From contig JBAYJV010000004.1 of assembly GCA_041664925.1 (NCBI GenBank), forward strand, positions 26,998 to 90,997: a DNA stretch of 64,000 nt. Direction: 5' to 3'. Origin of the DNA: Minisyncoccota bacterium. Lineage in GTDB: Bacteria > Patescibacteriota > Minisyncoccia > JBAYJV01. Of this stretch, positions 35,753-60,128 are shown in pieces. Both the position numbers and the translations under genes were made by a program. Positions within the stretch are counted from its first letter, which is position 1. Each line of letters begins with the position of its first letter. The notes under the pieces are model-generated. The model saw only the letters and a program-made list of their open reading frames with translations, was not told the DNA's origin and made no database searches.

Positions 35753-37340
<1,588 letters not shown>

Positions 37341-42314: not shown

Positions 42315-42318
42315 TTTG

Positions 42319-42828: not shown

Positions 42829-42833
42829 GTAAA

Positions 42834-43463: not shown

Positions 43464-43487
43464 ATTTTTGATCCGAGACTCTTATAA

Positions 43488-44360: not shown

Positions 44361-44446
44361 AAAGGCTTATCGGAACCTTAAAGGCGCAATCCTTTTTAGC
44401 TCCTTAAGCCTTTATGGCAAAAAAATGTATCATTATAGTAACAATT

Positions 44447-44992
44447 TTATCTAGGAAAAACTCCTCTGTCGTAAATCGGAGCATCAGCTGAATCCGTTCC
44501 ATCAAAGTTTGTTGCTGCAGCAGATGAACCACAGTCGGGGCTTTGATCCCATAACCAGGTTACTGAGCTAGTTGCTTGAGTATTATCATCTACATCTTGA
44601 GTTAACATATCACTATCAGAATTTTCAAGTTTAGCACCAATATGGTAATACTGTCTTTGTTTTCCGGCTACAAGATCCGAATCAGACCCAACGGCATAGC
44701 AATAAGGATTGCCAGATGTTGGATCAGTTGGAAAGGCGCTCATATTAAGGAATCCTTCTGTGGCAAGGGCTGCAAGGCTTGAGGTCGGAGCATCTGGATA
44801 TTGCAAATGAGCAGCGTAATAAAGTTCAAGCGCTAACTCAATTTGGCGAACATCAGAAACGCGTCTTGCGTCTCTAGCTCTAGCACGAGCGCTTGTCAAA
44901 GAAACAGCAACGATTGTTGCCAAAAGACCGAGAATGGCAACTACGACCAAAAGTTCGATAAGAGTGAAACCTCTTTTGTTTTGTTTAATCAT
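44447..44992 (-). CDS. pilA: Type IV pilin (major pilin candidate)
   Basis: 'MIKQNKRG|FTLIELLVVVAILGLLATIVAV', a C-terminal Cys pair, a 181-aa protein and a monocistronic-looking gene with a long upstream region. Confidence 0.75.
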   Translation of the reverse strand: MIKQNKRGFTLIELLVVVAILGLLATIVAVSLTSARARARDARRVSDVRQIELALELYYAAHLQYPDAPTSSLAALATEGFLNMSAFPTDPTSGNPYCYAVGSDSDLVAGKQRQYYHIGAKLENSDSDMLTQDVDDNTQATSSVTWLWDQSPDCGSSAAATNFDGTDSADAPIYDRGVFPR

Positions 44993-45214
44993 TTTTTTAA
45001 AATTTTCAATAATCTCCGCATTTGCGCGGAAAGGTCGACCTTTTGTTATTCAAATTAAAACAACAACTAGTTGTTACCTAATTTTAACACTATTTAGCGT
45101 TAATTTAAAGTTGTAAATAACTAACTTATCCACAATACAATCTGCGTAAATTTGCTTTTCTTAAAAATGAATCTGTGTAAATCTGTTTGTGTATCTGTGC
45201 AAATCCGCATTGTC

Positions 45215-46426
45215 CTAAAACATTTCACTCATTTTGTATATGGGAATGATAATCGATGAAACCAAAAATGCCACACCAAGCGCCATAATAATAATCAAAA
45301 ATGGTTCTATAAGCTTACTAATATTGTCAATAACCGCGTCAACTTCTTTCTTATAAAAACTCGCCAATTTATCCAACATATTATCTATGTTTCCTGATTT
45401 TTCGCCAACTTTCACCATTTCCGTGAACATTGGAGGAAATTCTTTGTAAATCATAAAAACTGAGCTCATGTTTTTTCCTCCTCTTACTTCTTCTTTTGTT
45501 TCCAAAATAATATCTCTATAAACGCTATTGCCAATAACACTGGCTGTCACCTCTAGAGATCTTAATATTGATATGCCTCCACGAAGCAAGGTTTTTAGAT
45601 TATCTGCAATTCTATTCAAATAAAAATGCTTCAATATTGTTCCAAAAACGGGAATTTTTAAAACGATTCTACCAATGATATTAATCCCCTGAGGAGTATG
45701 GATCCAATACCAAAAACCATAACCAGCGCCTCCAATTAAAATAATTGCTATATACCAAAATTTTTGTAAAAAATCACTTAACCCTATTAAAAGTTTCGTC
45801 GTCATTGGTAACTCAACCTTTGCTTCAACAAGCATTGCCGTAATTTGAGGAACAATCTTCACCATGGCAAAAATACCAATTATAACCATAAATACCATCA
45901 ACAAAGCAGGATACATCATCGCTCCCTTCACTTTACTGGTTGTTTCATGTCTCTTTTCTTCATAATCGGCCAGATAAATTAATGTTTTTTCCAGAGTACC
46001 TGAGACCTCAGAAGAACGAATAAGATTCATGTAGAAATCAGAAAATATTTTAGGATATTTGCTCATCGCTTTCGAAAGAGATGATCCGCCTTCAACATCC
46101 TGAGCCACCACCGCGAGAATATCTCTAAAACTTGGGTTTGTTGTTTGGCGTGCCAATGATTTAAGAGCTTCAACCAAAGAAACTTTTCCTTCCACCAAAG
46201 TTGCCAGTTCTCGCGAAAAAACAACCAAGTCTTTTTGCTTAATTCTATTGAGAAAAGCAATATTAACTCTTTTTTTATAGATAGGTATATCGTCTTCAGC
46301 AACCAAAGAAAAAACTATTAGGCTGTAGTTTTGCAATGTCTTAATCGCCTCTTCTTTTGTTTCTGCTTCAACAATTCCTTCTTGGACGATTTTTTCAGAA
46401 TTTTGCGCTTTATATCTAAATTTCAT
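45215..46426 (-). CDS. pilC: Type IV pilus assembly platform protein PilC (GspF family)
   Basis: A 403-aa polytopic protein with duplicated GspF-like halves. Confidence 0.8.
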   Translation of the reverse strand: MKFRYKAQNSEKIVQEGIVEAETKEEAIKTLQNYSLIVFSLVAEDDIPIYKKRVNIAFLNRIKQKDLVVFSRELATLVEGKVSLVEALKSLARQTTNPSFRDILAVVAQDVEGGSSLSKAMSKYPKIFSDFYMNLIRSSEVSGTLEKTLIYLADYEEKRHETTSKVKGAMMYPALLMVFMVIIGIFAMVKIVPQITAMLVEAKVELPMTTKLLIGLSDFLQKFWYIAIILIGGAGYGFWYWIHTPQGINIIGRIVLKIPVFGTILKHFYLNRIADNLKTLLRGGISILRSLEVTASVIGNSVYRDIILETKEEVRGGKNMSSVFMIYKEFPPMFTEMVKVGEKSGNIDNMLDKLASFYKKEVDAVIDNISKLIEPFLIIIMALGVAFLVSSIIIPIYKMSEMF

Positions 46427-47497
46427 TTAAATCATGAGTCTAAGCTCATTAGGATTAGAACTAAAAGTCATCGCGCTATCCATAGAGATAATCTCTCTTT
46501 TAACTAAATCTGCCAGCGAATAATTAAGGGAATTCATTCCCTCCTCAGAACTTGTTTCAATAATTGATGGCAATTGATAGATTTTATTTTCTCTAATAAT
46601 ATTACGAACAGCACTATTGGCTATTAAAAGTTCGATTGCATTAATTACTCCTCCGCCAATTCTTGGCACTAAGCGTCGTGACAAAATCCCCAATAAAGTA
46701 CTGGATAGTTGGTAACGTACTTGATTTTGTTGATGTGGCGGAAAAGAATCTACTATTCTATCAATTGTTTGAGCAGCATCGTTGGTGTGAAGTGTTGCGA
46801 AAACTAAATGACCAGTTTCAGCTGCCGTTAAGGCCGCAGAGATTGTTTCTGGATCTCTCATTTCTCCAACCATAATAACATCAGGATCCTGACGCAGAGC
46901 CGATCTGAGTGCTCTACTCATTGAATTTGTATCACGATAAAGCTCTCTTTGGTCAATAATACATTTTTGTTGATCAAAAATATATTCAATAGGATCCTCT
47001 ATAGTAATAACATGGTCGCTTCTTTTTTCGTTAATTTCATCGATCATAGCTGCCATTGCTGTGGTTTTTCCGTTACCAGACGGACCAACCACTAAAAAAA
47101 ATCCTTGATTAATAAGGCAGAACTTTTTTAAAATTGCTGGCAATTCCAGTTCTTCAATGCTACGGATTTTGTTGGGAATTAAGCGCATAGCAGCAGAAAC
47201 ATAGCCTTTCTGAAAATAAACATTAGTACGAAATCTAGTATTTTTTTTAAATGTATAAGAAAAATCTATTTCTTTCTCCTTTTCGAAACGAGCTTCGTCT
47301 TCTGGACTTAAAAAACTATAAACCAGTAATTTTGCCTTTTCCGCAGTGAGAATCTCTTGTCCTTCTATAGGAACCAAGCGCCCATCCACCCTCATGCTTG
47401 GCGGACGACCTTCAGAAATATGAAGATCTGTTGCTTCATTTTTTATAACAATTTCCAAAAGTTCTTCTATTTGTTTTTCCGCATTTAAATCAAGCAT
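46427..47497 (-). CDS. pilT: Twitching motility / pilus retraction ATPase PilT
   Basis: Walker A 'GPSGNGKTT', 'DPIEY', 'MVGEMRDPETI' and His box 'GHLVFATLHT'. Length is 356 aa. Confidence 0.85.
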   Translation of the reverse strand: MLDLNAEKQIEELLEIVIKNEATDLHISEGRPPSMRVDGRLVPIEGQEILTAEKAKLLVYSFLSPEDEARFEKEKEIDFSYTFKKNTRFRTNVYFQKGYVSAAMRLIPNKIRSIEELELPAILKKFCLINQGFFLVVGPSGNGKTTAMAAMIDEINEKRSDHVITIEDPIEYIFDQQKCIIDQRELYRDTNSMSRALRSALRQDPDVIMVGEMRDPETISAALTAAETGHLVFATLHTNDAAQTIDRIVDSFPPHQQNQVRYQLSSTLLGILSRRLVPRIGGGVINAIELLIANSAVRNIIRENKIYQLPSIIETSSEEGMNSLNYSLADLVKREIISMDSAMTFSSNPNELRLMI

Positions 47498-47567
47498 TTT
47501 TAAGACCAGGCACTAAAACCAGATACTAGATAACAAATCTAGAAACTGGAAATCAGTGACCAGAAAA

Positions 47568-47930
47568 TTAATTTATTATTTTTTTTACTCTATCTACTAC
47601 TTCCTGGGGAGTAAATTGTGCCTTAACAAGATAATCTACCGCTCCCAATTTTAACCCTTTTTCAATATCTTCTTTTTGCCCAAGATTAGTAAGTAAAACT
47701 ACGGGTATATCGCTTAATTTTTTATCTTTTTTAATTTCCTCAAGTACCTCAAGACCATTTCTTATCGGCATTTTTATGTCAAGAAGGATTATATCTGGCC
47801 TGATTTTTTTTATTTTCCGTAAACCCTCTTCTCCGTTATAGGCCGCGTCAATGTCATAACCAAGCCTAGAAAATTTCGTCACATACATATCAGATAAGAA
47901 AATATCATCTTCGACCAAAAGAATTTTCAT
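47568..47930 (-). CDS. Single-domain response regulator receiver (CheY/PilH-like)
   Basis: 'MKILLVEDD...DIILLDIKMP' with the conserved Asp and Lys. Length is 120 aa. Confidence 0.8.
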   Translation of the reverse strand: MKILLVEDDIFLSDMYVTKFSRLGYDIDAAYNGEEGLRKIKKIRPDIILLDIKMPIRNGLEVLEEIKKDKKLSDIPVVLLTNLGQKEDIEKGLKLGAVDYLVKAQFTPQEVVDRVKKIIN

Positions 47931-47934
47931 GGTT

Positions 47935-49668
47935 TTACTCTTTGGTTATACGCAAAACTTCTTCAAAAGAAATCTGCCCTCTGAGCGTTTTAAGAATTGC
48001 GTCTTGGAACATTGTTGTCATTCCTTGTCTTTTTGCCTCATCTCTAAACTTACTATCAGCTGCATCAGTGACAATAATATCTTCAAGTTGTGGCGTCATT
48101 TCTATAATTTCAAAGATGCCTATTCTCCCTTTTGATCCTTTATTTTGGCAGTATTTACACCCAGGAGCACGAAATAATTTATATGGTCCTTTCTCGTTTA
48201 TACCTTCTTTTTCTGACTTGGGAATTTCCAATAGAGTTCGTTTTATAATTTCTTGGATTTCCTCTGATGGTTCGTATTCCTCTCTACAATCCTGACAGAG
48301 TCTCCTTCCCAATCTCTGAGCAACTCCCAATGAAAGAGTTGATGGCAATAGGTATTTCTGAACACCCATGTCGGTCAAGCGTGGTACAATACCAACAGCA
48401 TCTTTAGTGTGAACAGTCGACAATAAGAGATGACCAGTAAGGGCAGCATGTGTCGCTAATTCAGCAGTCTCTGGGTCACGAATTTCACCAACCATGATAA
48501 TGTTGGGATCTTGTCTCAAAATATGTCTTAATCCTGAAGAAAAAGTATATCCGATATCAGGTTTTACCTGGGATTGATTTACGCCCTCTATGAAATACTC
48601 TATAGGATCTTCTAGGCTTATAATATTCACCCCTTCCTGATTTAAAATATTAAGAATTGTGTAAAGCGTGGTTGTTTTGCCAGAACCAGTTGGTCCTGAA
48701 GATAAGATCATTCCATACGGACTATTCATAGCCTTTTCCACCACCCTGAGATTTCTTCCGACCAGTCCCAATCCATCAAGACTATAAATGCCAACCGTCG
48801 GATCTAAAATTCTTAGAACAACTTTTTCTCCATTAGCTGTTGGAAGAGTTGATACGCGAAAATCAATTTTCTTATCATCTAATTTTACGTGAAAACGACC
48901 ATCTTGCGGAATTCTTGTTTCGTCAATTTTGAGGCGACATAAAATTTTTATACGCGTGATTATTGATTGATGGACTTCTTTTTCAAGATATAAACTTGTA
49001 TGCAAAACGCCATCCACGCGAAAACGAATTTTAACAGAATTTTCTAAAGCCTCGATGTGAATATCAGAAGCTTTTGTTTCCACTCCATACCTAATAATAA
49101 CTCCAACAATTTTACTAATCGGTGCCTCAGCCGCCAAAGGCTCTGCTGTTACAACTCTCCGTCTCGTTGGAATTTTTTCGGCAGCAGTTTGAATTTCGAG
49201 CTCTTTTAGTGCCTCTTCTACTCGTCCTTTTATGTTTTGGTACTGTCTTAGAACAGTGTCAAAACTTGCCTTACTTATAAGATAGTTTTCAATTTTAATA
49301 TTGCGCCTTGTGCCAATAAACCTTAAAACCTCCAAAGCTTCGTGATCTTCTGGATTGATTAACCCTACTTTCAAAATATTTCCTTCTCTTGCAAAAGGAA
49401 CAAATCTGTACTGCCTAACGGTTTCTTCGGAAAATTCCTTAAGGATTTTTTCATCGATATTAATCCTCTCTAAATTCATATACGACAAATCTAAAACCTC
49501 AGCTTCTGCAATCAACCACTCTTCTTCACTAATCAGATTTTTCTTGATTAGATATTCAGAAAGCGGCTTGTTGAGCTTTTTTGCTTTATCTAAGTGATCT
49601 AGAGTATCCTCTTTTTTAAAAATGCCCTTTTTGGTGAGTATTTGGGCAATTTCCTGATCGTGATTCAT
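47935..49668 (-). CDS. pilB: Type IV pilus assembly ATPase PilB (GspE family)
   Basis: Walker A 'GPTGSGKTTT', 'MVGEIRDPETA', tetracysteine 'CQDC...CKYC' and an N-terminal GSPII domain. Confidence 0.85.
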   Translation of the reverse strand: MNHDQEIAQILTKKGIFKKEDTLDHLDKAKKLNKPLSEYLIKKNLISEEEWLIAEAEVLDLSYMNLERINIDEKILKEFSEETVRQYRFVPFAREGNILKVGLINPEDHEALEVLRFIGTRRNIKIENYLISKASFDTVLRQYQNIKGRVEEALKELEIQTAAEKIPTRRRVVTAEPLAAEAPISKIVGVIIRYGVETKASDIHIEALENSVKIRFRVDGVLHTSLYLEKEVHQSIITRIKILCRLKIDETRIPQDGRFHVKLDDKKIDFRVSTLPTANGEKVVLRILDPTVGIYSLDGLGLVGRNLRVVEKAMNSPYGMILSSGPTGSGKTTTLYTILNILNQEGVNIISLEDPIEYFIEGVNQSQVKPDIGYTFSSGLRHILRQDPNIIMVGEIRDPETAELATHAALTGHLLLSTVHTKDAVGIVPRLTDMGVQKYLLPSTLSLGVAQRLGRRLCQDCREEYEPSEEIQEIIKRTLLEIPKSEKEGINEKGPYKLFRAPGCKYCQNKGSKGRIGIFEIIEMTPQLEDIIVTDAADSKFRDEAKRQGMTTMFQDAILKTLRGQISFEEVLRITKE

Positions 49669-49676
49669 ATTTAAAT

Positions 49677-49949
49677 CTATTCGTATGGTTCAAATGGATT
49701 TTCTCGCCCCGGAAATCTCGGCTCTATAGGGTATTTACCATATCTGGCTAACCCCTGGAAAAAGTCTGACTTTAAAACACCTAGTTCCAGTTTATACTCT
49801 GTTGGAATATTGTTTTTAGAAAGATTTTCGTCTAAATTTTTATCTTTAAAAACTTTCAAATAAATAAAAATTGATATTACTAAAACTAGAACTAGTATCA
49901 TTACAACTGCTATGTATAGATTTTTTTTATTTTCAAAAAATTGAGACAT
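49677..49949 (-). CDS. Small membrane protein (hypothetical, in the pil operon)
   Basis: 90 aa with a single TM. Confidence 0.35.
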   Translation of the reverse strand: MSQFFENKKNLYIAVVMILVLVLVISIFIYLKVFKDKNLDENLSKNNIPTEYKLELGVLKSDFFQGLARYGKYPIEPRFPGRENPFEPYE

Positions 49950-49963
49950 CTTTCTTGTGTTAG

Positions 49964-50052
49964 TAATAAGATTACTTTTACTAGCGTAATAAGATTACTT
50001 TTACTAGCGTAATAAGATTACTTTTACTAGCGTAATAAGATTACTTTTACTA
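49964..50052. repeat. About 4 tandem copies of a 23-bp unit (taataagattacttttactagcg)
   Basis: Exact tandem repeats in the pilO/small-ORF intergenic region. Confidence 0.85.
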
Positions 50053-50601
50053 GTAATAATATGTGACAATGTTTATATTAAAATCGTAAATTGTCTGACC
50101 ATTAATTTTTTCGGCGTTTTGACTGGGAGAAGAAAAGGAGATGTTGGTTATGTCCATTAATCTGAGATCGTTTTGACTTAGCAACATTAAATTTTTAAGA
50201 GTTTCGTATGTTCCTTTGGTTCTAAGGTTTATAGAAACCTTACTGACTCCAGCTTGATCGCCAACTCCACCTACGTTATTGTTGCTAGGAGTTATATTAA
50301 CCCCTTTCAAAATCATGCCGCTTTTTGTCACAAGCGCTTCAGTTTCCACCATAAGCTCTTCGGTCATTGGCTCAACCGGCAATATTGTCTTCATTTTTTC
50401 TTTTTCTTCCGTTAATGTTTTGAGTTGTATTTCGTATGAATTAATTCTGTCAATTTCTTTTTCTTTAGATGCTAGTAATTCTTTTTGTCTAGTTATTTCT
50501 GCTTTTGATATTTTTATATCGCTAAATATCGGCGCAATAAAAAAGTACCAAACAGTTACAAAAACAACAAATAAGAAAAATATTAAAAGTTTAGGTTTCA
50601 T
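50050..50601 (-). CDS. PilO-like pilus assembly protein (start adjusted)
   Basis: A single N-terminal TM, a coiled-coil region and a C-terminal domain. It lies downstream of pilN/pilM. Confidence 0.5.
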   Translation of the reverse strand: MKPKLLIFFLFVVFVTVWYFFIAPIFSDIKISKAEITRQKELLASKEKEIDRINSYEIQLKTLTEEKEKMKTILPVEPMTEELMVETEALVTKSGMILKGVNITPSNNNVGGVGDQAGVSKVSINLRTKGTYETLKNLMLLSQNDLRLMDITNISFSSPSQNAEKINGQTIYDFNINIVTYYY

Positions 50602-51193
50602 TTTTTTGTTGGTCAGGGATCTTTTGCCAAACTTCAGGTGCAAGTACAATTTCAAAAGAAAAACCAATGCCTTCATCTTTCATGCTAAACGAAGAAAGTT
50701 TAAAGCTTTTGATGAGCGGTTGTTTTTTAAAGATAATTATCTGTTCAGCCAAATTTGTAAAGCTTGGTGTTGTTCCTGAGACTCTGATTGTTTTGGTGCT
50801 TATTTCACAGCCGAAAGACTGATACTGAACCTTTGGCATAGTTCTTTTTTCCAGAAAATCCAAAACACCCACCCACTCAAGATGACCCTTTATAAGTTGC
50901 TCAATCACAGATAATCGATTTTGAAAATTAGAAACCTCGCTATTCTTCATCAAATTTCTCTTTTCTTCTTCTTTTTTCTTGTTCTCGTCTTCAAGTCTTG
51001 TAATTTCTCTAACTAACGATCTTTGATGGTTTTTTACAATAAAATAGAACCCAAAAATTAACAAAACTCCTAACAAGAAAGAGATTATGTAAATAAGTTT
51101 TTTGGGTTCTCTGGCTTTTCTCAACACCAAAGAACCAATTCTTCCTTTTTTTGCTTTTATTGGATTTGTCGGCGGAATAAGATTCAGCGGCAT
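50591..51193 (-). CDS. PilN-like pilus assembly protein
   Basis: A 200-aa bitopic protein with a coiled coil, immediately downstream of pilM. Confidence 0.5.
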   Translation of the reverse strand: MPLNLIPPTNPIKAKKGRIGSLVLRKAREPKKLIYIISFLLGVLLIFGFYFIVKNHQRSLVREITRLEDENKKKEEEKRNLMKNSEVSNFQNRLSVIEQLIKGHLEWVGVLDFLEKRTMPKVQYQSFGCEISTKTIRVSGTTPSFTNLAEQIIIFKKQPLIKSFKLSSFSMKDEGIGFSFEIVLAPEVWQKIPDQQKNET

Positions 51194-51249
51194 ATATTTC
51201 CTCTTAAATTACTTTATGTTTTAATTATACCTCAGTTTAAAAATAACAA

Positions 51250-52329
51250 CTACTTTTCTAATCCCCTTTTGGCCAAACCAACAGCGACTGCAAAATATGG
51301 ACCTTGCGCTTCTAGCGTATTTTTGATCGTTGGCGGAATAATAATATTTTTCCAAGGATTAATAACTTCTACTTCCGTCCCCAGTTTTTCTCTAAAATAT
51401 TCAACTAATCCTTTTAATAAAACCGCTCCTCCTGATAATATAATTTTATTAACCTTAAGCGAATCCGTTTGGCGACGCTTAATCCGATCAACTATGTCTT
51501 CAAAGTGAGGTAAAAGAGCGCTTTTTACAATCGGATCATCTAGTCCTTTTTCCCTTTTAAGTTTTTCTGCGTCGTTGAAACTCAAGCTTCTTTTTTCATG
51601 AAGAATAGAACGAGTGAAATCATCACCAGAAATATTGATATTGAAAGTATCTTTTATAAATGATTCGAAGAATACTGTAACATTTGTGTTTTGTCCTCCT
51701 ATGTCAATGAATATATAGTGTCCCGAATCAGGAAGACCGGCAGACCTAAATAAGGAAAAGATTTCTACTTCCAATACCTCTGGTTCAACTTTTAAAAATT
51801 TTGTTAAAGTTTGATATCTAGTAACAATATCTTTTGGCACTGCCATTAAAAACACCTCTTGAATCATAATCCCTTGCTTATCGCCACTCAAAATATCCGC
51901 CGATTGCGTCAATCCTGCTTGGGTTTCCCTAATAACTCTCCATTCCAAGATTGTTTCTTCAATTGGTATAGGAACATGTTTTTTTGCCTCAAATTTAATT
52001 GCATTATTCAGTTCTTCTCCTTCAAGATCAGCCGGCAGTCTCAAAATAGTTGTAAAGGTTGAATGGATAGGTATTGATACTGCTGCTTTTTCACTTTGAA
52101 AAGTCGTTGCTTTAAAAACTTCTTTCATAATCCTCCCGAGTTCTATTGGTGAAAGTTTCAAAAAATTCTCTCGACTCTCCATCAATGGATCGCTTTTTAT
52201 ATTAGAATATGTTGAGGCATAATTTTTTAAATAAATACTGCCTCTTTTTTTTTCAAGCTCAACCAATTTCAGAGTTGAACCTCCTATATCGATGCCTAAA
52301 TATGTATTATCGTTTGAAAAAAGTCCCAT
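51250..52329 (-). CDS. pilM: Type IV pilus assembly protein PilM (actin-like ATPase fold)
   Basis: 'LGIDIGGSTLKLVEL' and a second 'FIDIGGQNTNV' phosphate motif. Length is 359 aa. Confidence 0.8.
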   Translation of the reverse strand: MGLFSNDNTYLGIDIGGSTLKLVELEKKRGSIYLKNYASTYSNIKSDPLMESRENFLKLSPIELGRIMKEVFKATTFQSEKAAVSIPIHSTFTTILRLPADLEGEELNNAIKFEAKKHVPIPIEETILEWRVIRETQAGLTQSADILSGDKQGIMIQEVFLMAVPKDIVTRYQTLTKFLKVEPEVLEVEIFSLFRSAGLPDSGHYIFIDIGGQNTNVTVFFESFIKDTFNINISGDDFTRSILHEKRSLSFNDAEKLKREKGLDDPIVKSALLPHFEDIVDRIKRRQTDSLKVNKIILSGGAVLLKGLVEYFREKLGTEVEVINPWKNIIIPPTIKNTLEAQGPYFAVAVGLAKRGLEK

Positions 52330-52500
52330 AAATCTTTCAAATCCGAAAATCGAATATCGAAATTCGAAATAATATCTAATTTTTAATTTTCAAAGTATTA
52401 AAACGGTTTCGAATTTAAAATTTTAAATATTTGAATTCCTGCCTGCCGGCAGGCAGGTGTTTCGAGTTTCGTGCTTTAAAATTTCGGATTTAATTTAAAT
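52330..52500. repeat. MITE-like AT-rich repeat (family copy 1) with 'aaatccgaaaatcgaatatcgaaattcgaaat' terminal inverted repeats, carrying the 20-bp palindrome at 52438-52457
   Basis: Shares 'atatctaatttt', 'aaaacggtttcgaatttaaaat' and 'tttcgtgct' blocks with 63492-63660 and 61090-61222. Confidence 0.6.
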
Positions 52501-53775
52501 TTAGCGCGGTATTACTTCAATATATTCTGGTTGTCCAGGCCTGACATTGAATGTCGTTGATGTCGAACAACTCTTCGTTCCAGAGTCAAAATGAATTGTG
52601 TGCGTTACTGTTCTGGGAGATACTTCACTATAAGTATGTGTCGCATTTTGAGTGCTGGCAGCTGTGCTATCGCCAAAATCCCAGAAATAACTTTCTACTG
52701 AATAGGATCCCGGGTCAGATGTTGACGTATCTTGAAAATTAATTTCATCGCCAATCTTCGGTTTTGTAGGACTCATTGTAAATCCGCACTCAGGATAATT
52801 TATTGGTACTGTAAATCCTGGCCCAGAAGTCCATGATGACCAGAGCCCGTCATTGTCTTGTACTCTCACTTCCCAAGAATACGTTTGACCATACCGAACC
52901 CTTAGGGGTGTCAAAGATAAACTTTCACTTGTCCCGATTAAGACTCCTTGTGATTGATCATCGCCATCCTCAAACTGATTAGGAAGATAAGGTCCGGGAG
53001 AAGAAGTTCCCGAAGATCCAGTTCCAGTATTAGTGAGTCTTAATTCATAAGTGTTTTCGTAGGCACCAATATCGATATCACGAAATGTCCAGTTTAGAAA
53101 ATAGTTTGCGGTATTATTACAAAGATCGTTATTGTTTGGTCCGGTAATATTTGTGTTTTCTACATACGGAGAATTATTGAAAACTAATGGATTAGTCCAA
53201 ATATAATAACCTGTACCACTAGAACTTATCCATCCTATAACTGCTGTGCTAGTAGTTGTTCCCCCACCCCAAGCATAATCAGAAAAACGACCAGTATTTA
53301 AATCAACACTAAGACCATAAAGAGTATCTCTTAATTTGATCCAACCGTAATCATCTCCAATTAAGTTAACGGCTTTTGCCCAACCGGACACTTGTCCATT
53401 CGCCGGATTAATTGTTGGTGTACAATTTGCGTGATCAGGACATTCGCCAGCTGTAACATCAAAACTAATCCAGCCGATATTATCTGACCAAGCATTGCCA
53501 GAAAAAACATGGGTTGAAGTGGAAATCGTCACGCCATAAGTACTTGTTCCGCAAATATTCGATTGACTTGGCCCTCCTTCAGTACAATTAAAACTGATCC
53601 AACCAATGTTATCTGACCACGCCCAGCCATGAACATTATCACTCGCAGACGCATAACATAGTCCTGTGAAAATCAAAAAACCTCCCAAAAGGAAAACAGC
53701 GCCCACGGATAATTTTAGTAGGATTTTTTTCAAATCTAATCTTAACATCTTTATAAAGATTATATCACAAAACAC
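52501..53775 (-). CDS. Secreted protein with a duplicated 'AWSDNIGWISF' motif and a C-terminal PKD domain
   Basis: A signal peptide and a PKD signature 'YFWDFGDST...HTY'. Length is 424 aa. Confidence 0.6.
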   Translation of the reverse strand: MFCDIIFIKMLRLDLKKILLKLSVGAVFLLGGFLIFTGLCYASASDNVHGWAWSDNIGWISFNCTEGGPSQSNICGTSTYGVTISTSTHVFSGNAWSDNIGWISFDVTAGECPDHANCTPTINPANGQVSGWAKAVNLIGDDYGWIKLRDTLYGLSVDLNTGRFSDYAWGGGTTTSTAVIGWISSSGTGYYIWTNPLVFNNSPYVENTNITGPNNNDLCNNTANYFLNWTFRDIDIGAYENTYELRLTNTGTGSSGTSSPGPYLPNQFEDGDDQSQGVLIGTSESLSLTPLRVRYGQTYSWEVRVQDNDGLWSSWTSGPGFTVPINYPECGFTMSPTKPKIGDEINFQDTSTSDPGSYSVESYFWDFGDSTAASTQNATHTYSEVSPRTVTHTIHFDSGTKSCSTSTTFNVRPGQPEYIEVIPR

Positions 53776-53884
53776 ATTTCTCCGCTCAAAGAATGTTATC
53801 CACAGAAAAATATTATTCTCAAAACAAAATATCCGCTACGAATGTAATGGATATTTCCTTCTTTCTTGATCTCAGCCTAAAAAA

Positions 53885-54496
53885 TTATTTCCCCAATAAT
53901 TTTCCCACTTCATTCATTATACTTACTGATTTCGCAACATACGACCCTTGAGTAACAAGTAAATTCTGATCGCTTACAACCCTTACCTGATCACTAATTT
54001 TTAAATTCTCTAATTTAATATCCTCGTAAGTGAACGGCTCTGGGGCAATCATGCCTTCGATAGGTTCGCCAGCCTTGTCTTTTTCCTCTAATTCTTGCTG
54101 ATATGCCTCGTATTCTTTAATAAACTCTTCCTGATTTTTCTCATGAGCTAAAGAAAAAACTGTCTCTCTCGTAATGTTAAATTTCATCTCCTTCGGAAAA
54201 GTTGATCCCAGGGGATTGAGAATTTGGTCTTCTTTTGGTTGAATTACTATAAGGTTTTTGTCTATTTTTGACACATTTCCTGTTACGCTTTTTAGTTCTT
54301 GCGGCAACGACCTTAAAATTCCTACTTGGCGCAAACTCGTTGCAAATTCTTTCTGAATTTGTTCACTACTGATTTTATCACTTAATACTGGTGTTTTTCC
54401 AATGGCATATCCCAAAAAGAAAAAAACTAAAACACCAAAAATAATACTGATAAAAATCCCGATTTTAAAATTTCCTATCTTCATAATATTAAACAA
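53885..54496 (-). CDS. Hypothetical membrane-anchored protein
   Basis: 203 aa with an N-terminal TM. Confidence 0.4.
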   Translation of the reverse strand: MFNIMKIGNFKIGIFISIIFGVLVFFFLGYAIGKTPVLSDKISSEQIQKEFATSLRQVGILRSLPQELKSVTGNVSKIDKNLIVIQPKEDQILNPLGSTFPKEMKFNITRETVFSLAHEKNQEEFIKEYEAYQQELEEKDKAGEPIEGMIAPEPFTYEDIKLENLKISDQVRVVSDQNLLVTQGSYVAKSVSIMNEVGKLLGK

Positions 54497-54513
54497 GAAA
54501 AGTTAATTAAATA

Positions 54514-55017
54514 CTATTGTCTTACGCAAAAATCACAGCTTGTTGCAAAATATGTACCATCACTTCTTAGTACCGCATAACAATAACTGTATGAACCAAC
54601 AGTATTAAGCGCGCACACATAGTTATAGCTATTGCAATAACAAGCATCTCCAACCGGTTGGCCCATATCCATATAGCCATTACAATTATCATAATCGGTC
54701 AAAGAACATTTGTAGTCAGACCAATTGCACTTTCTGTTTTTGACAAAAATGTCACCAACTTGCCCAACATTAGTAAAAGGACAATTTGGCAATAACCGAA
54801 CAACAGGAGGATAAACTGCCCAAGCAGGCGTGATAATTTCTGGCGCTTTCATCCTGTTCTGACTTAACAAGAAAGTGTTTCTGGCGCTTAAGTAAAAATT
54901 CTGAGTTTTCGCGTAAAACAAATTCCTTTCTTTTCGCAAAAGAAACGGCGATATAGCTAAAAGCAAAATTAGCAAGGTTAAAATTACTACATGGTGTGTC
55001 TTTAAAAATGTTTTCAT
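54514..55017 (-). CDS. Small Cys-rich secreted/anchored protein (start adjusted)
   Basis: A signal-anchor and a C-terminal region with many Cys (CDNCNGY...CYCNSYNYVC). Confidence 0.4.
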   Translation of the reverse strand: MKTFLKTHHVVILTLLILLLAISPFLLRKERNLFYAKTQNFYLSARNTFLLSQNRMKAPEIITPAWAVYPPVVRLLPNCPFTNVGQVGDIFVKNRKCNWSDYKCSLTDYDNCNGYMDMGQPVGDACYCNSYNYVCALNTVGSYSYCYAVLRSDGTYFATSCDFCVRQ

Positions 55018-55022
55018 AAATA

Positions 55023-57251
55023 TTATTGTTTTACAATACAATACATGCATTCAGTGTTAAGGTATGAATTACTAGCATTACATGTATCGTCTACGCCGCC
55101 ACAGGTGGAAGCAACCCCCATAACATTACTCCTACACATAGCGCTTCCTTCTGATGATGTCCATACTTCAATGTATTCATAAGGATCGGGTGCTTCATCA
55201 ACATAACAGATTGTGCCAACTCGACACCAATAGTTTCGGTAACTGAAACCATCTTCGTTTTGAACCAAAAGATCCCCCTTGCTTGCGGTTAATCCAGGAC
55301 CGAAAGAAGGATTTCCTGTTGTTATTCCAAAACTAGCACAGTCTTGAATAACATCTGCTGGATTACAAACCCCACAGTCATCTGGACAAGTTGAGCATGT
55401 TTCTCCACAAGTGGAACTACATGTTCCATCGTTGCAAGCACAATCACAACTTGCATCATAATTACAAGATGCATAAGTGGAATTATCAGTAGTACATTTT
55501 TCGGTGGAAGCACAACCACTGCCAATATTTGTCCATGACGACCAATTTCCGTTAGTTATGGCCCCGTTACAGCTTGCACTACCCGAACATTTTTGAGTAA
55601 CCGTTCTGTTTTGACTTTGAGCATCATTGTCACAGGCCGCTCCTGTACATCGATAATCATATTCTGTCCAAGTATTGCAGATATATGAAGAAGGTCTGAA
55701 AGCATCACTTGGACAAGTAGCGCCTGATCCCGAACAGGTTTCTGCTAAATCACAATCCCCCGCAGAGGCACGACAAACAGTGCCTAAAGAATCATAGTTA
55801 CATCCATTGGTACAACAAGCACCAGAGGAACAAAAACAACCAGAGCTCACAGTAATCGTCGTTGTATTTTCTGCCGTAACGCCTGATCTTGTAACTCGCG
55901 CTTTGGCAGTATATGTGCCTACTGAAGAATAATTACACAAATCCGTAGCTGTATAAGAAGTATTAGAAATTGTAGTAGACGCTTCCCATGATCCGTTATT
56001 AGTACAATCAAATTGATATCCGATATTACCCGTAGCTGTGCCAGAGACAGTCGCTGTCAAATCCACTCCATTTAATGGAGCCGTACCAGAGGAAGGAGTT
56101 GCAGAAAGCACAACAGAAACTGTCGGACCTGTTAAATTTCCTTTTCTAATAATCGCTGTGCGGTAAGCTTTTGAAATTACTCCATCTACAAAAATACTTT
56201 TGCCAGCATTAAAAAGCCACAGAGAGCTGGGGTTCATTTGAATATTAATTCCCGAGCCAACCGTCAAGTTTCCGCCTTCTGCGCCAACAATAGTTCCAGT
56301 TTTTATAACGCAAGTGTTTGTACCCCCCAACGCAGTATTATTAACAGTGTAATTTCCTGTTGTATAGTCAGGAATGCAATTTGCCACAGCCCCATCTCCT
56401 GTAAGAGCAATGCTAATATTGCTCGCATTGCTATTAAATATAGCTGTACCACTAAAAGCGCCTACGCTACCTGGGGTAAACCTTAGGGTTGTCGATTGTT
56501 GTTGTCCGGCTGTAAGGCCATAAGAACATCCACTAAAACAGGAAAAAGGAGTGCTCAATCCGCTGACCGATCCAGTCAATGTTCCTGTGCCAGTATTTTT
56601 GACCGTAAAAGCGTAATCGCCGTTTGAGCCAACATTAATACTGCCAAAATAAAAAGAAGGAGATGGTGTAACGGAAATTTGCGGAGGAGCCACAATTTCA
56701 AAAACAATATCTGGCATGCCAGAAATACCACTTGTAAACTCATAGTGATCACTATCAAAACCCAAACTAGTTCTAGCGTTGACTCCTCTTAATATTTGAA
56801 CATTATTGCAAGTTTTAGGAATTCCCGGATTTTCCCTATAACATCCAAAGCTCCCCGTATTCATATTATCAACTAGCACAAAATACACTTCTGCCGCACT
56901 CACATTAAGAGGAGTGCTTAAAGAAACACATGTCCATTTGTATGAACTACTTGTTATTGTTACGCCATACTGATCGCCTAAATAGTAACTCGAAGAATCA
57001 TATAAGCCAACATGTACTGTTCCTTTTATATAGGCACATAGTTTTGTTATTCTTCCATTCACGATAGGGCTAAATTTATACCCTGGATCACGATTAGAAA
57101 AATTATCACAATAAAGTGTTCCGCTCTCACAAGAACCCCAAACTTGTCCAGTTTCTGCTGCCCTCGCTTTGTGTGATGATATTAAAAATAATGCGCTGAC
57201 AACTAAAACCACGCTTAACAAAATAAATTTTTTAAAATTAAGTCCTCTCAT
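55023..57251 (-). CDS. Large Cys-rich secreted protein with a disintegrin-like (ADAM-type) domain
   Basis: A signal peptide and 'GACCTNGCNYDSLGTVCRASAGDCDLAETCSGSGATCPSD', which matches disintegrin spacing GxCCxxCx(6-8)GTxCRx(5)CDLxExCxGxSxxCPxD. The Cys-rich tail continues. Confidence 0.6.
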   Translation of the reverse strand: MRGLNFKKFILLSVVLVVSALFLISSHKARAAETGQVWGSCESGTLYCDNFSNRDPGYKFSPIVNGRITKLCAYIKGTVHVGLYDSSSYYLGDQYGVTITSSSYKWTCVSLSTPLNVSAAEVYFVLVDNMNTGSFGCYRENPGIPKTCNNVQILRGVNARTSLGFDSDHYEFTSGISGMPDIVFEIVAPPQISVTPSPSFYFGSINVGSNGDYAFTVKNTGTGTLTGSVSGLSTPFSCFSGCSYGLTAGQQQSTTLRFTPGSVGAFSGTAIFNSNASNISIALTGDGAVANCIPDYTTGNYTVNNTALGGTNTCVIKTGTIVGAEGGNLTVGSGINIQMNPSSLWLFNAGKSIFVDGVISKAYRTAIIRKGNLTGPTVSVVLSATPSSGTAPLNGVDLTATVSGTATGNIGYQFDCTNNGSWEASTTISNTSYTATDLCNYSSVGTYTAKARVTRSGVTAENTTTITVSSGCFCSSGACCTNGCNYDSLGTVCRASAGDCDLAETCSGSGATCPSDAFRPSSYICNTWTEYDYRCTGAACDNDAQSQNRTVTQKCSGSASCNGAITNGNWSSWTNIGSGCASTEKCTTDNSTYASCNYDASCDCACNDGTCSSTCGETCSTCPDDCGVCNPADVIQDCASFGITTGNPSFGPGLTASKGDLLVQNEDGFSYRNYWCRVGTICYVDEAPDPYEYIEVWTSSEGSAMCRSNVMGVASTCGGVDDTCNASNSYLNTECMYCIVKQ

Positions 57252-57272
57252 TTTTCAATTTTAGATTTATGC

Positions 57273-57818
57273 TTAAAAACTAATCGCATCCCAAAAAAGA
57301 GTCATTTTGTGCTCTTCGCCAGATTTAAGTCGGTACTTGAATTCAACTGGATACGATGCCCCCAAAACAAGATATTTTGGTTGCCAAGTTAATTGATAAA
57401 AGACAGTGTTGTTGTTTTTATCAGCACGCAAAAGCGCAAAATCTTTTTCCTGAGCGCCACTGCCATCTTTCAAAACCGCTTTAACTGTTTTTATTTCCGA
57501 TGAATTTTTAAGCGCCAATATTATGTTTTGTCTTTCTCCTTCTTTGAGTTGAAATGGGTCAATGGTGATTGCAGAAAAATTGCCTGCTTCATCACCAGAA
57601 ACGCCAAAAGTTTCCGATCTATTAACAGTTTGATTTATCGATTTTTCTGAAAATTCGCTTATCCCAAAAATCCATTTTCCGCTAATGACCAAATAAGACA
57701 TAATACTCAAAAAAATCACTACCAAAAAAAGCAAAACTACTGCCACGACATTAATCTGATTAGATTTTTGAAGTGACTTTTTTTCCATTTTCATTTTAAG
57801 GTTTGAGGTAAGTTTCAT
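57273..57818 (-). CDS. Hypothetical membrane-anchored protein
   Basis: 181 aa with an N-terminal TM. It is co-directional with the adhesin cluster. Confidence 0.4.
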   Translation of the reverse strand: MKLTSNLKMKMEKKSLQKSNQINVVAVVLLFLVVIFLSIMSYLVISGKWIFGISEFSEKSINQTVNRSETFGVSGDEAGNFSAITIDPFQLKEGERQNIILALKNSSEIKTVKAVLKDGSGAQEKDFALLRADKNNNTVFYQLTWQPKYLVLGASYPVEFKYRLKSGEEHKMTLFWDAISF

Positions 57819-59083
57819 TTGTTCAAGACATCAAGGTCAATATAATTCTTTGTATTTTGATCACTATAGAGATTATTTAGCTCACCACTATGATCAATTC
57901 TTGTGCCAATTAAGCGATATGAGAACTTTGCATTTGACGCGCCATCTCTTGATTTAACAATTAATTTTGAATCATTCATATAAGCATAGAGAGAAGCATT
58001 GCTCTGTGAAGAAACAAAGGGCACTACTGATTTTAGATCAACGGCATGCCAGAAGAGCCACAGGTCAGATCCCTCGGTTTGTTTTGCCAAGTCAATAGTT
58101 AATTCTCTTTTTTTAAGCTGGCTTTGACCAATAACTTCTATTTTTTGACCAATAGAGTCTGGTAAATAAGTTACATATTTTTTGCCTTGAATATTAAACA
58201 CAGGATCAATTTCCCTTACATTACCAAGTTTGTAGTTCGCAAAATCGATGCTTCCCCCACCGCTTGTATTAATAGTAAATGGAGAATTACCCACGGTACT
58301 TGTTCCTGTCCACTGAGTAATATAATTGTTTGTGCCAGAACCTGTAACCCCTCCCGCATCCGCCGCACAAACCCATTGGTCCGATGAATTATATTTCATT
58401 ATTTGATCAGTAGCACAATTTTGAATTCCAAAATTATTGCTCGCATCCCTCTGAAGTCCTTTGTTTGTAATAATATTCTGGGTTGACGTAACGCCCGTAT
58501 TGGTTATGGTAATATTGCCATTTGCCCCACCATCGGTAATTGAAATACCAGTTCCTGCAGTAAGTACTCTTTCGCCAGTAAGAGTGCCGTTAAGCCCTAA
58601 AACAACATAGCTTGCATCCGTAGGAGCACCGCCACCAACAGCATTTTGCCATTGAGCCCCGCTAGCAGTTTGAGTTAATACCTGACCATTGGTTCCGATT
58701 GATCCATTAATATATATATCGCTATTTAAAAGATAAATGTTTTTCCCGGATCCCATATAAAGACCCGTTTCATAAATAAACACATCTCCCAGTCCAGTAC
58801 TATCTCCGTTTATACTAAGACCACTTGCAACACTTGTAATTGCGGTATTGGCCATTCCGGAATTATTGATATTCAGTCCTCCTTGTATTATTAATTGCCC
58901 ACTTTTGGTTTGCGCTGTAGAGCCAACATTAACAGGTGCGGCAACATTATCTCCAGGAGGTACCGCTGTTGGTCCTGTCCAAGCAGCGATTGCTATTTGA
59001 AACCCAATCGCTCCAACAGTCACTAAAAAAAGAAAAGCCAGTATCCGCGCTACTGAACTGACAGAAAAGTTTGCTTTTTTCAT
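57815..59083 (-). CDS. Secreted Gly/Thr/Asn-rich protein (putative pilus-associated adhesin; first gene of the cluster)
   Basis: An N-terminal signal/TM and low-complexity G/T/N-rich beta-like repeats. Length is 422 aa. Confidence 0.45.
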   Translation of the reverse strand: MKKANFSVSSVARILAFLFLVTVGAIGFQIAIAAWTGPTAVPPGDNVAAPVNVGSTAQTKSGQLIIQGGLNINNSGMANTAITSVASGLSINGDSTGLGDVFIYETGLYMGSGKNIYLLNSDIYINGSIGTNGQVLTQTASGAQWQNAVGGGAPTDASYVVLGLNGTLTGERVLTAGTGISITDGGANGNITITNTGVTSTQNIITNKGLQRDASNNFGIQNCATDQIMKYNSSDQWVCAADAGGVTGSGTNNYITQWTGTSTVGNSPFTINTSGGGSIDFANYKLGNVREIDPVFNIQGKKYVTYLPDSIGQKIEVIGQSQLKKRELTIDLAKQTEGSDLWLFWHAVDLKSVVPFVSSQSNASLYAYMNDSKLIVKSRDGASNAKFSYRLIGTRIDHSGELNNLYSDQNTKNYIDLDVLNK

Positions 59084-59297: not shown

Positions 59298-60005
59298 ATG
59301 AATATTTTCGATATTTTATTCCCTCCCCATTGTATTTCTTGTCAAAAAATCACCGATAATAAGTCTGTTTTTTATAAATACCTTTGTTCTGATTGTCTTC
59401 GAAAAATAAAGATAAATGAAGATGATATGTGTATTTCTTGTCATAATTTAACTCGATTTGGCAAAACCTGCTCCAGTTGTTCAAAAAATACACCTCTTAA
59501 TGGTTTGCTGGTTGCATCTGATTATAAAAATCCTATCTTAAAAGAAACTATTCATTATTTTAAATATAACAATGTTAAAGATCTTTCACTTCCCCTTTCT
59601 TGGGTTCTCTTAAAAAAATTAGAAGAATTTGAATGGAAAAATAAAGAAGAATGGATTTTTGTCCCAGTACCATTGGCAAAAAAACGCCTTAAATTTCGCG
59701 GATTTAATCAGACAGAACTTTTGGCGCGAAATTTAGCTAAATGGCTTAACATTTTCGTATCTTCTGCTATAATAGAGAGAGTCAAATTTCATACTCCTCA
59801 GATGCAGATCGAAAATAATCAAGAAAGGCTTGAAAATATTAAAAATAGTTTTAGGATAGTAAAGAACCTTGATCTGCTAAAAATAAGAAATAAAAGAATA
59901 ATGCTCGTTGATGATGTTTCAACAACAGGAGCAACTTTGTCTGAGTGCGCGAAAGTTCTTAAACCTCACGTTAAAGAGATTTGGGGATGCGTCGTAGCAA
60001 AGTGA
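59298..60005 (+). CDS. comF: ComF family competence protein (phosphoribosyltransferase-like)
   Basis: N-terminal Zn-finger 'CISCQ...CSDC...CISC...CSSC' and a C-terminal PRTase 'IMLVDDVSTTGATL'. Confidence 0.75.
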   Translation: MNIFDILFPPHCISCQKITDNKSVFYKYLCSDCLRKIKINEDDMCISCHNLTRFGKTCSSCSKNTPLNGLLVASDYKNPILKETIHYFKYNNVKDLSLPLSWVLLKKLEEFEWKNKEEWIFVPVPLAKKRLKFRGFNQTELLARNLAKWLNIFVSSAIIERVKFHTPQMQIENNQERLENIKNSFRIVKNLDLLKIRNKRIMLVDDVSTTGATLSECAKVLKPHVKEIWGCVVAK

Positions 60006-60079: not shown

Positions 60080-60128
60080 GGAAGGGTGGCTGAGACCTGC
60101 CTGCCGGCAGGCAGGGGCTGAAAGCAAC
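60080..60128 (+). other. Duplicated 5' portion (nt 1-29) of tRNA-Ser(GCT), precisely interrupted in the D-loop by the 20-bp palindrome (60096-60115)
   Basis: GGAAGGGTGGCTGAGA[CCTGCCTGCCGGCAGGCAGG]GGCTGAAAGCAAC. The parts flanking the palindrome equal the first 29 nt of the intact tRNA-Ser. Confidence 0.8.

Follow-up and report, generated by a model that had tools for sequence, protein, structure and literature searches.

What a protein with a disintegrin-type domain does beside the type IV pilus genes of an ultrasmall bacterium of the candidate phyla radiation (CPR) is the question raised by a block of six genes (positions 52501-59083) on contig JBAYJV010000004.1 of a Minisyncoccota bacterium (assembly GCA_041664925.1). 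The window, i.e. the whole stretch of DNA that was analysed, comprises 64,000 nucleotides (nt) and has a GC content of about 34%. A preliminary description of this DNA had suggested that the six gene products, among them a disintegrin-like protein and a PKD-domain protein, form a host-attachment or DNA-uptake apparatus together with the neighbouring pilus and ComF genes. The analysis presented here points, with moderate confidence, to a pilus-associated, diversifying host-adhesion cassette, composed of a conserved frame (genes 1, 5 and 6) and a variable insert (genes 2-4). In comparisons of sequence, the frame genes proved to be members of conserved Paceibacteria families, while genes 2-4, including the gene for the disintegrin protein, are lineage-specific cargo, and the link to the type IV pilus exceeds simple adjacency. 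The disintegrin module is real, but it is a secondary, non-conserved passenger of this block, whereas the gene-1/5/6 frame with its swappable cargo slot, which is pilus-linked across Paceibacteria, is previously undescribed.

The conserved frame and its linkage to pilus genes

Open reading frame (ORF) calling placed six co-directional ORFs on the minus strand of the block, in agreement with the preliminary description, and all six proteins start with the hydrophobic N-terminal signal peptide or anchor that had been attributed to them. All features of the block described below are likewise located on the minus strand.

Gene 6 (53775..52501; 424 residues, or 415 in the public gene call, 52501..53748) encodes a signal peptide followed by a WSxNIGWISF-repeat domain, an immunoglobulin-like (Ig-like) domain, a PKD domain and a C-terminal LPxWxEVxP motif. 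The family comprises at least 1,687 homologues that are conserved over their full length, and the AlphaFold2 (AF2) model of gene 6 reached a mean predicted local distance difference test score (pLDDT) of 80. The family is defined by its N-terminal beta-rich domain (53179..53643), in which four GWAWSxNIGWISF-type repeats show invariant glycine, tryptophan, serine and phenylalanine columns (family alignment A1). The AWSDNIGWISF motif, with copies at nt 53619 and 53490, is indeed duplicated, as had been proposed; the duplication is seen in the protein as well as in the DNA, where it takes the form of a 48-nt direct repeat (53453-53500 and 53582-53629, 129 nt apart). The PKD domain (52546..52755) was recovered both by profile (PF18911, PKD_4; 41.9 bits against a cutoff of 27, E=1.1e-10) and by fold, as Foldseek aligned gene 6 with the PKD domain of ColG (4jrw) with a TM-score of 0.87 and a root mean square deviation of 1.6. 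The A1 family profile also matched the PKD domain of ColH (E=3e-20). Only the Ig/FN3 and PKD parts of gene 6 were recognised by fold and sequence searches. The LPxWxEVxP motif (window positions ~52501-52545, A1) is conserved at the C-terminus of the family; the window protein stops there, and some of its relatives extend past the motif with a hydrophobic or amphipathic tail of about 22 residues. This motif could act as a sorting, anchoring or partner-binding signal.

The linkage of this family to pilus genes was assessed in 80 species-representative gene 6 loci, 54 of which have at least 8 kb of flanking sequence. Pilus genes were found at 33 of the 80 loci, and at 29 of the 54 well-flanked ones. 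This is several-fold above a random expectation of about 5-15%, a figure that represents a rough estimate (20-kb sample, sub-Mb genome, one or two pilus clusters) and not a computed control. Gene 6 and the linked pilus genes are always co-directional, at a median distance of 2.3 kb, and at eleven loci they lie within 250 nt of each other. Three arrangements were observed: (a) gene 6 ahead of pilMNO-B-T-C; (b) pilB to pilD, a gene-1-like gene, gene 6 and minor pilins (L030, L031, L072, L086 and others; L-numbers denote loci from other genomes, and P-numbers individual proteins); and (c) gene-1-like genes, gene 6 and, after about 3.5 kb, a response regulator, pilB and pilC. The gap between gene 6 and pilM measures only -47 to 39 nt in L008, L009, L032 and L087, and such a short distance or overlap implies operonic coupling of the two genes at these loci. 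By extension from these other species, co-transcription of the block with pilM is plausible. Overall, the linkage between gene 6 and the pilus is strong, but not obligate. A literature search on pilus-linked PKD proteins of Parcubacteria returned nothing specific. In Paceibacterales that parasitise methanogens, the gene for an Ig and PKD protein ranks with the most highly expressed ones (PMC10936435); this protein is likened here to gene 6 by domain content and not by established homology.

Gene 1 (59083..57815; 422 residues) is rich in glycine, threonine, asparagine and serine, much as the preliminary description had it, and can be divided into an N-module (residues 1-110), a shaft (residues 153-200) and a C-terminal domain (residues 277-422). 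As a whole, it has no match in Pfam, NCBIfam or PHROG. Its signal peptide and the conserved motif AWTGPTAVPPGDNVAAPVNVGSTAQTKSGQL (58886..59083) carry the family signature WTEPSxxPPxxNVxxPxNVGxxxQxKxGxL. Across the 80 species loci this motif was found in 26 ORFs ranging from 77 to 1023 residues, always after a hydrophobic segment that ends in a small residue and is followed by tryptophan; the C-termini of these ORFs are unrelated to each other. At 23 of 52 loci a gene-1-like ORF is located at most 4 kb upstream of gene 6, often as two or three tandem paralogues. The C-terminal domain of gene 1 recurs in about 30 proteins of 233-674 residues. A candidate assignment of this domain as a Nup98 autoproteolytic domain (E=0.08) was rejected, as the family profile finds nothing of the kind (best E=0.33, to an unrelated regulator).

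The shaft element (58484..58627; 48 residues) is common to phage tail-fibre proteins. It is about 80% identical in many cellular proteins and also occurs, at 46-89% identity, in no fewer than 72 viral contigs that vary widely in GC content; five of the nine tested carrier ORFs match tail or tail-fibre PHROGs (best E=2e-50). A 488-residue counterpart of gene 1 (L005) carries the family motif and ends in Peptidase_S74, a self-cleaving chaperone that is typical of trimeric fibres. This domain is confined to the L005 family member, gene 1 itself having no Peptidase_S74 match in Pfam. Neither gene 1 as a whole nor the gene 6 family has relatives in 2.9 million viral contigs, and five of the six proteins of the block are without a PHROG match, the sixth (gene 6) showing one marginal match (E=2e-4) to a family of unknown function. 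Since the shaft is present in viral fibres while gene 1 as a whole lacks viral relatives, gene 1 is better described as a fibre of the cell itself, exported by Sec and equipped with a borrowed phage module, than as a prophage remnant. It resembles phage tail fibres and the fibre adhesins of predators in its constant N-terminus, mosaic shaft and exchangeable C-terminal tip, as well as in the shaft shared with viral fibres and the S74-bearing family member. On the other hand, it differs from phage tail fibres in having a Sec signal, in being chromosomal and pilus-linked, and in lacking full-length viral relatives. The mosaic fibre proteins of Bdellovibrio are an example of fibre-type adhesins in bacterial predators.

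Gene 5 (54496..53885; 203 residues, or 199 in the public call, 53885..54484) encodes a small, membrane-anchored protein. An iterative profile search identified at least 20 homologues, all of them beside gene-1-like or gene-6 genes. The family signal holds when the transmembrane helix is left out (E down to 1e-41), and the family shares the C-terminal motif GL..L..G..V.V.S.ENIRGK.EF. Gene-5-like genes were present at 12 of 52 loci, next to the frequencies given above for gene-1-like genes and for pilus genes; the window has all three, and in its 64 kb it holds one gene-1-type and one gene-6-type gene only.

The variable slot and the disintegrin-type module

Between the gene-1-like gene and gene 6 lies a variable cargo slot, which genes 2-4 fill in this genome. 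In the closest syntenic genome (L006) a four-gene version is found, with the order comF, gene 1 (42% identity), gene 2 (81%), a 953-residue counterpart of gene 3, gene 6 (78%) and pilM; this version lacks genes 4 and 5. Only over residues 180-468, a stretch that covers the Ig, beta-rich and PKD-like parts, is the counterpart of gene 3 similar to gene 3 (82% identity); both of its ends differ, and no disintegrin module was found in it. The comparison with related genomes that the preliminary description had called for therefore gave a divided answer, as genes 1, 5 and 6 recur while the disintegrin is absent from the closest relative. Likewise, the idea of a pilus-linked adhesion apparatus is partly supported: the synteny of genes 6, 1 and 5 across species speaks for it, but the disintegrin protein is not its conserved part.

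Across species, 28 Cys-rich secreted ORFs were found directly upstream of gene 6. Among those scanned, the slot contains CBM96 together with an F5/8 type C discoidin domain (L056), an NHL/beta-propeller (L080), Ig domains (L057) or Bsp-like repeats (L073), and other slot proteins combine 63-94 cysteines with no known domain. In two further Paceibacteria species (L051:4263-6992 and L024:2-1747), a pretoxin-HINT domain is present in a Cys-rich cargo protein directly upstream of the gene 6 homologue, suggesting that the same slot can hold polymorphic-toxin-like effectors besides adhesins.

Two of the three cargo genes of the window are small. Gene 2 (57818..57273; 181 residues) encodes a signal-anchored, lineage-restricted protein with relatives only in L006 (the 81% identical copy mentioned above), L060 and L024. 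Gene 4 (55050..54514; 178 residues, or 167 in the public call, 54514..55017) encodes a signal-anchored Cys-rich orphan with ten cysteines; it has no family matches and no counterpart in L006, and even iterative searching of the 80 species loci returned no homologue. The possibility that gene 4 is a paralogue of the gene 3 C-terminus was considered and rejected, as only a marginal pairwise match was obtained (E=8e-4, no composition correction) and iterative searching yielded no family.

Gene 3 (57251..55023; 742 residues) is a secreted, mosaic, multi-domain protein with 46 cysteines and an isoelectric point (pI) of 4.4, so that the Cys-rich character ascribed earlier to genes 3 and 4 was confirmed. 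It starts with an N-terminal domain (56700..57143; residues 37-184) that is also found as the C-terminal module of the pilin P0040, followed by an Ig-like or choice-of-anchor D domain (56400..56693; residues 187-284). The latter was matched by NF012200 in NCBIfam (48.1 bits against a cutoff of 45, residues 187-278) and by PF22544 in Pfam (28.4 against 25.5 bits), and NCBI's name for the gene 3 protein follows this choice-of-anchor D domain. A PKD-like Ig module (55848..56099; residues 385-468) belongs to a block of about 95 residues with more than 60 matches at 50-70% identity, many of them annotated as PF00801, which recurs in many Patescibacteria surface proteins. The disintegrin-type module (55704..55865; residues 463-516) is present in single copy, and is followed by a Cys-rich extension (55365..55703; residues 517-629) that gene 3 has in common only with P0007.

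P0040 links these cargo modules directly to the pilus. It is a 639-residue modular type IV pilin (L125:10001-11920) whose gene follows immediately on pilM in a CPR pilus operon; genes for a histidine kinase and a response regulator lie ahead of this operon. Its prepilin N-terminus GFTLLELLIVIG is recognised by N_methyl (29.1 bits against a cutoff of 21.2), its residues 482-637 are 35% identical to the N-terminal domain of gene 3 (E=5e-19), and it also carries Ig-like domains and the Patescibacteria PKD-like module found in gene 3.

The disintegrin claim of the preliminary description held for the 742-residue protein. PF00200 (Disintegrin) matched gene 3 with 39.0 bits, above the gathering cutoff of 35.1 (E=1.4e-9), the precomputed annotation gives the same family, and matches to ADAM and venom proteins were found in the PDB (2dw0, catrocollastatin; 3g5c and 8hpy, ADAM22; 1ro3, echistatin; E=8e-6 and weaker). 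Nine cysteines of gene 3 (C474, C479, C480, C484, C493, C500, C506, C513 and C525) align with cysteines of catrocollastatin 2dw0, and seven cysteine columns are in register between gene 3, ADAM22, the snake venom metalloproteinase (SVMP) catrocollastatin, echistatin and bacterial copies of the module. The signature CR-x5-CD-x-x-E-x-C-x-G-x-S-x-x-CP-x-D is present in gene 3, with an ADAM-type xCD loop. Profile, cysteine columns, signature and loop are thus shared with the disintegrin domains (PF00200) of ADAMs, P-III SVMPs and venom disintegrins.

There are also clear differences from these proteins. The profile aligned only over positions 22-75 of 75, i.e. its C-terminal two thirds, and alignment with full-length bacterial copies (P0052, P0119) showed the N-terminal CGNG..E.GEECD sub-domain to be missing from gene 3. 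Neither a reprolysin nor an ADAM_CR match was obtained for gene 3 in Pfam at E<=1, and the PDB alignments end at residue 542. As to the ADAM-like Cys-rich region that had been proposed to follow the disintegrin, a Cys-rich extension does exist at residues 517-629, but it has no ADAM_CR profile match. Because the profile match is partial and both the metalloprotease and an ADAM_CR match are lacking, the element should be regarded as a disintegrin-type module and not as an ADAM. No integrin tripeptide was found at the loop tip of gene 3, where AGD lies opposite the RGD of echistatin and the loop sequence DCD is of the ADAM xCD type. The setting differs too, being a secreted bacterial mosaic protein that is known here from its sequence. 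In ADAM structures, contacts with the following domain bury the xCD loop. Given this burial, an integrin-type ligand is a less likely role for the module of gene 3 than a rigid element stapled by disulfides; most likely it would serve an adhesin as a spacer or binding loop made rigid by disulfide staples, and a function as integrin ligand is unlikely.

The hairpin itself is far from rare. When gene 3 residues 465-610 were searched with HMMER against 1.84 billion representatives, 3,193 clusters were found at E<=1e-3 and 386 at E<=1e-30, nearly all hairpin-bearing clusters being giant proteins with 10-35 tandem units (P0052, P0067, P0119, P0361-P0508; one named example comes from Candidatus Binatia). 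These bacterial arrays match PF00200 with up to 281 bits (P0052: 231 bits in ten stretches), and some of their copies are full length, including the CGNG..E.CD start. No pilus genes and no gene-1/5/6 module were detected at any of the 37 metagenomic loci encoding such arrays (L088-L124), which have a GC content of 49-75%, mostly above 60%. The same hairpin unit is thus shared between gene 3 and the tandem arrays (P0052, P0119, P0366), whereas only the window protein and the Patescibacteria protein P0007 have one hairpin joined to a Cys-rich extension specific to CPR. In line with this, the full 146-residue query was matched only by P0001, which is the protein itself, and by P0007. According to these searches the disintegrin hairpin is a widespread bacterial repeat without pilus association outside this locus. 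The literature search on disintegrin domains or repeats in bacteria or CPR returned nothing specific. The hairpin, usually regarded as a motif of animals or venoms, is widespread in bacteria, in thousands of protein clusters.

Genomic neighbourhood of the block

The pilus and ComF surroundings were as initially reported. Downstream of the block and on the same strand lies a complete, monoderm-type type IV pilus operon (41296..52329, minus strand), consisting of pilM, pilN, pilO, a small ORF, pilB, a response regulator, pilT, pilC, a major pilin, pilD and four minor pilin-like genes, with Pfam matches to PilM_2, PilO, T2SSE (twice), Response_reg, T2SSF and N_methyl. The block is located upstream of pilM, about 9 kb from the minor pilins. 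The five downstream pilins carry prepilin GFTL(I/V/L)E signals; a signal of this GFTLxE type was found on none of the six N-termini of the block, which also lack a PF07963 match in Pfam, and there are no pilins among the six proteins. Upstream of the block, the divergent comF-type gene (59298..60005, plus strand) encodes a DZR_2 and a phosphoribosyltransferase domain. The response regulator between pilB and pilT is a stand-alone receiver gene (47568-47930), and many Paceibacteria loci (arrangement c) retain its pairing with pilB, a pattern that points to control of the pilus by a phospho-relay.

Within the block the genes are closely packed, with a 4-nt overlap between genes 1 and 2, gaps of 6-29 nt within genes 2-5, and 109-136 nt ahead of gene 6; a 28-nt overlap between genes 3 and 4 disappears with the later start of gene 4 in the public gene call, which starts genes 5 and 6 later as well. 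The gap between gene 6 and pilM (52330..52500, minus strand) measures 171 nt and holds a repeat element of about 130 nt with the palindrome CCTGCCTGCCGGCAGGCAGG at 52438-52457. The RNA fold of this gap has a free energy of -43.5 kcal/mol (z=-5.1), and the palindrome is without a clean U-tract. The palindrome, which is perfect, GC-rich and 20 nt long, occurs five times in the window (6121-6140, 23079-23098, 52438-52457, 60096-60115 and 63514-63533), where none are expected according to 100 shuffles; in two copies paired changes preserve the palindrome, and the other three copies are exact. All copies are intergenic, being located after tRNAs, recG and comF and before pilM, and those at 52.4 and 63.5 kb, the latter after recG, sit in the longer, AT-rich repeat of about 130 nt. 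A REP/MITE-like element is one possible identity of the palindrome; others are a binding site for a protein and a terminator that acts in both directions.

Scans of the block for consensus promoters and terminators were uninformative, as the counts equalled the shuffle expectation. A 28-nt inverted repeat around the whole block was considered as the boundary of an invertible or mobile cassette and rejected, given that equal scores were obtained in 18 of 500 shuffles and in 3 of 29 low-GC control windows. No template/variable repeat pairs of a diversity-generating retroelement were found in the block, the sole direct repeat being the internal motif duplication of gene 6.

Further observations concern other parts of the window. 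The rRNA genes are unlinked (23S at 24914-28030, 16S at 35758-37340, 5S at 24763-24877); the 16S and 23S genes are separated by about 7.7 kb, which contain tRNAs and protein-coding genes, glycosyltransferases among them. Against a model of 2925 nt, the match to the 23S gene extends over 3117 nt, and the gene may contain an insertion of about 190 nt. An ORF of 74 residues with a GIY-YIG nuclease domain (precomputed Pfam; ~60140-60364, plus strand) is located between comF and a tRNA, beside a copy of the GC-rich palindrome. Finally, recG is a single ORF of 725 residues in the window (61314-63491) and in the JGI contig, and is split into ORFs of 268 and 453 residues in the ENA assembly of the same organism (L001:2979-5149), which is a frameshift or an assembly difference.

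Adhesion cassette and alternative readings

Several observations weigh against a pilus-associated host-adhesion cassette. None of the six proteins carries a prepilin signal that would directly support a place on the pilus; 25 of the 54 well-flanked gene 6 loci have no pilus gene within 10 kb; and in this genome the structured repeat in the 171-nt gap separates gene 6 from pilM, and the block may be its own transcription unit. The C-terminal domain of gene 1 has no relative in the PDB, and the N-terminal domain of gene 6 has no PDB match by sequence or Foldseek, both domains owing their proposed role to genomic context. A docking role of the gene 1 N-terminus is purely conjectural, and the AF2 model of gene 3 residues 455-742, built from a six-row alignment, has a mean pLDDT of 36.9, which is too low for conclusions on the fold.

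The first three of these observations are also what would be expected if the six were general envelope or S-layer-associated proteins, i.e. components of the envelope or adhesins of short range that work independently of the pilus and whose genes simply adjoin the pilus genes, perhaps under shared regulation. PKD and Ig domains are common in S-layer and other surface proteins, and the top Foldseek match of gene 6 is an archaeal S-layer protein with a PKD domain. We regard this explanation as possible but unlikely, as it does not account for the position of gene 6 inside a pilus cluster (with pilD and minor pilins), or at most 40 nt from pilM or overlapping it, in several species, nor for the fusion of gene 3 modules to a bona fide pilin in L125, nor for a frequency of linkage several-fold over the rough random estimate.

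The DNA-uptake role put forward in the preliminary description would make gene 6, gene 3 or both of them DNA receptors that work with the pilus, ComF and ComEC and make up for a missing ComEA. It draws on the divergently adjacent comF, which is found in the same arrangement in L006 and beside pilM in L086, and on reports that CPR pili are implicated in competence while ComEA is missing in about two thirds of CPR genomes (10.1101/335083). However, the ectodomains are strongly acidic (gene 3 pI 4.41, gene 6 pI 4.29; net charge about -23), which is the opposite of known DNA-binding pilus proteins and argues against this role. Moreover, no DNA-binding domains were found in Pfam or NCBIfam, the slot holds lectin, discoidin and propeller modules elsewhere, which are typical of glycan or protein binding, and most gene 6 loci are without comF linkage. 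A DNA-uptake apparatus is therefore considered very unlikely.

No more credit can be given to contact-dependent effector or toxin delivery, in which the variable proteins would be surface-presented polymorphic toxins and not adhesins. The pretoxin-HINT domain, a hallmark of polymorphic toxin systems, does occur in same-slot cargo of L051 and L024, but genes 2-4 are without HINT, toxin or immunity-like domains in Pfam and NCBIfam, gene 3 is made of binding-type modules (Ig, PKD, disintegrin, Cys-rich), and most of the tested cargo elsewhere consists of binding and not of toxin modules. Least probable of all is a degraded prophage or tailocin remnant with gene 1 as tail fibre and the other genes as phage receptor-binding or accessory proteins, which would fit the viral carriers of the shaft, with their tail-fibre PHROG matches, and the Peptidase_S74 end of the L005 counterpart, but is contradicted by the lack of viral relatives and of PHROG matches described above, by Sec signals on all six proteins that virion proteins do not need, by the lack of capsid, terminase, integrase or baseplate genes nearby, by the conservation of the module position across many species, and by GC content and skew that are continuous with the flanks.

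A pilus-associated adhesion cassette can be compared with several known systems. The PilY1/PilC tip adhesins of Pseudomonas, Myxococcus and Neisseria, for which an adhesin or priming role has been proposed, are likewise large, non-pilin, Sec-exported proteins encoded with pilus genes, and in arrangement b the minor pilins are neighbours of gene 6, as they are of pilY1. According to a statement cited in PMC11623550, PilY1 binds integrin in an RGD-dependent manner. Unlike these systems, none of the six proteins contains a PilY1/Neisseria_PilC beta-propeller or shows sequence or fold similarity to PilY1/PilC, the organism is a monoderm-type CPR bacterium without secretin, and in the window the block lies at the end of the operon opposite the minor pilins. 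PilX1 and PilX2 of the Saccharibacteria strain TM7x (PMC11623550) are also large pilus-locus proteins of a CPR bacterium without PilD-type signals and with accessory binding domains; efficient binding to the host requires PilX2, which has been compared to PilY1. They contain a beta-jelly-roll lectin and an RCC1 propeller, whereas WSxNIGWISF, Ig and PKD domains, a fibre and a disintegrin mosaic are found here, and this comparison, between Saccharimonadia and Paceibacteria, is one of descriptions and not of sequences. Finally, modular pilins such as PilB/PilC of Streptococcus sanguinis and P0040 share the principle of grafting adhesive modules onto a pilus system. Gene 3, in contrast, has an ordinary Sec signal and no prepilin N-terminus, and hence it cannot polymerise into a filament as a pilin does.

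In a pilus-associated cassette, all six proteins would be exported by Sec and fold oxidatively outside the cell; the enrichment of CPR genomes in extracellular enzymes of the MdbA/VKOR type, which form disulfides, makes this plausible (10.1101/335083). At the pilus machinery or at the filament, genes 5 and 6 would provide a platform that stays constant, and the fibre and the cargo proteins would be attached to it, with gene 1 docking via its constant N-terminus. The variable distal domains would then bind host-cell surface structures, and extension and retraction by PilB/PilT would bring the symbiont to the host. Physical association with the pilus, docking through the gene 1 N-terminus and host binding are the steps that we infer.

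A more specific and rather doubtful proposal gives the conserved mature N-terminus that gene-1-type proteins share (WTEPSxxPPxxNVxxPxNVG...Q.K.G.L) the part of a docking peptide, which would plug fibres and cargo onto the platform of gene 6 and gene 5, at the tip or the exit site of the pilus. It is just as speculative that Paceibacteria equip their type IV pili with exchangeable phage-tail-fibre-like adhesins. If this were true, an exchange of tips and cargo (disintegrin mosaic, lectins, propellers, HINT toxins) could re-programme the host range, and the system would represent a pilus-borne analogue of the modularity of phage receptor-binding proteins, which has not been described for any pilus system.

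In CPR bacteria outside the Saccharibacteria, the way in which hosts are found and held is little understood; type IV pili have been implicated, while the determinants of specificity have not been identified. The block described here offers candidates for host recognition, in the form of a three-family frame and a hypervariable cargo position, and a cargo that changes between close relatives is the behaviour expected of host-range determinants.

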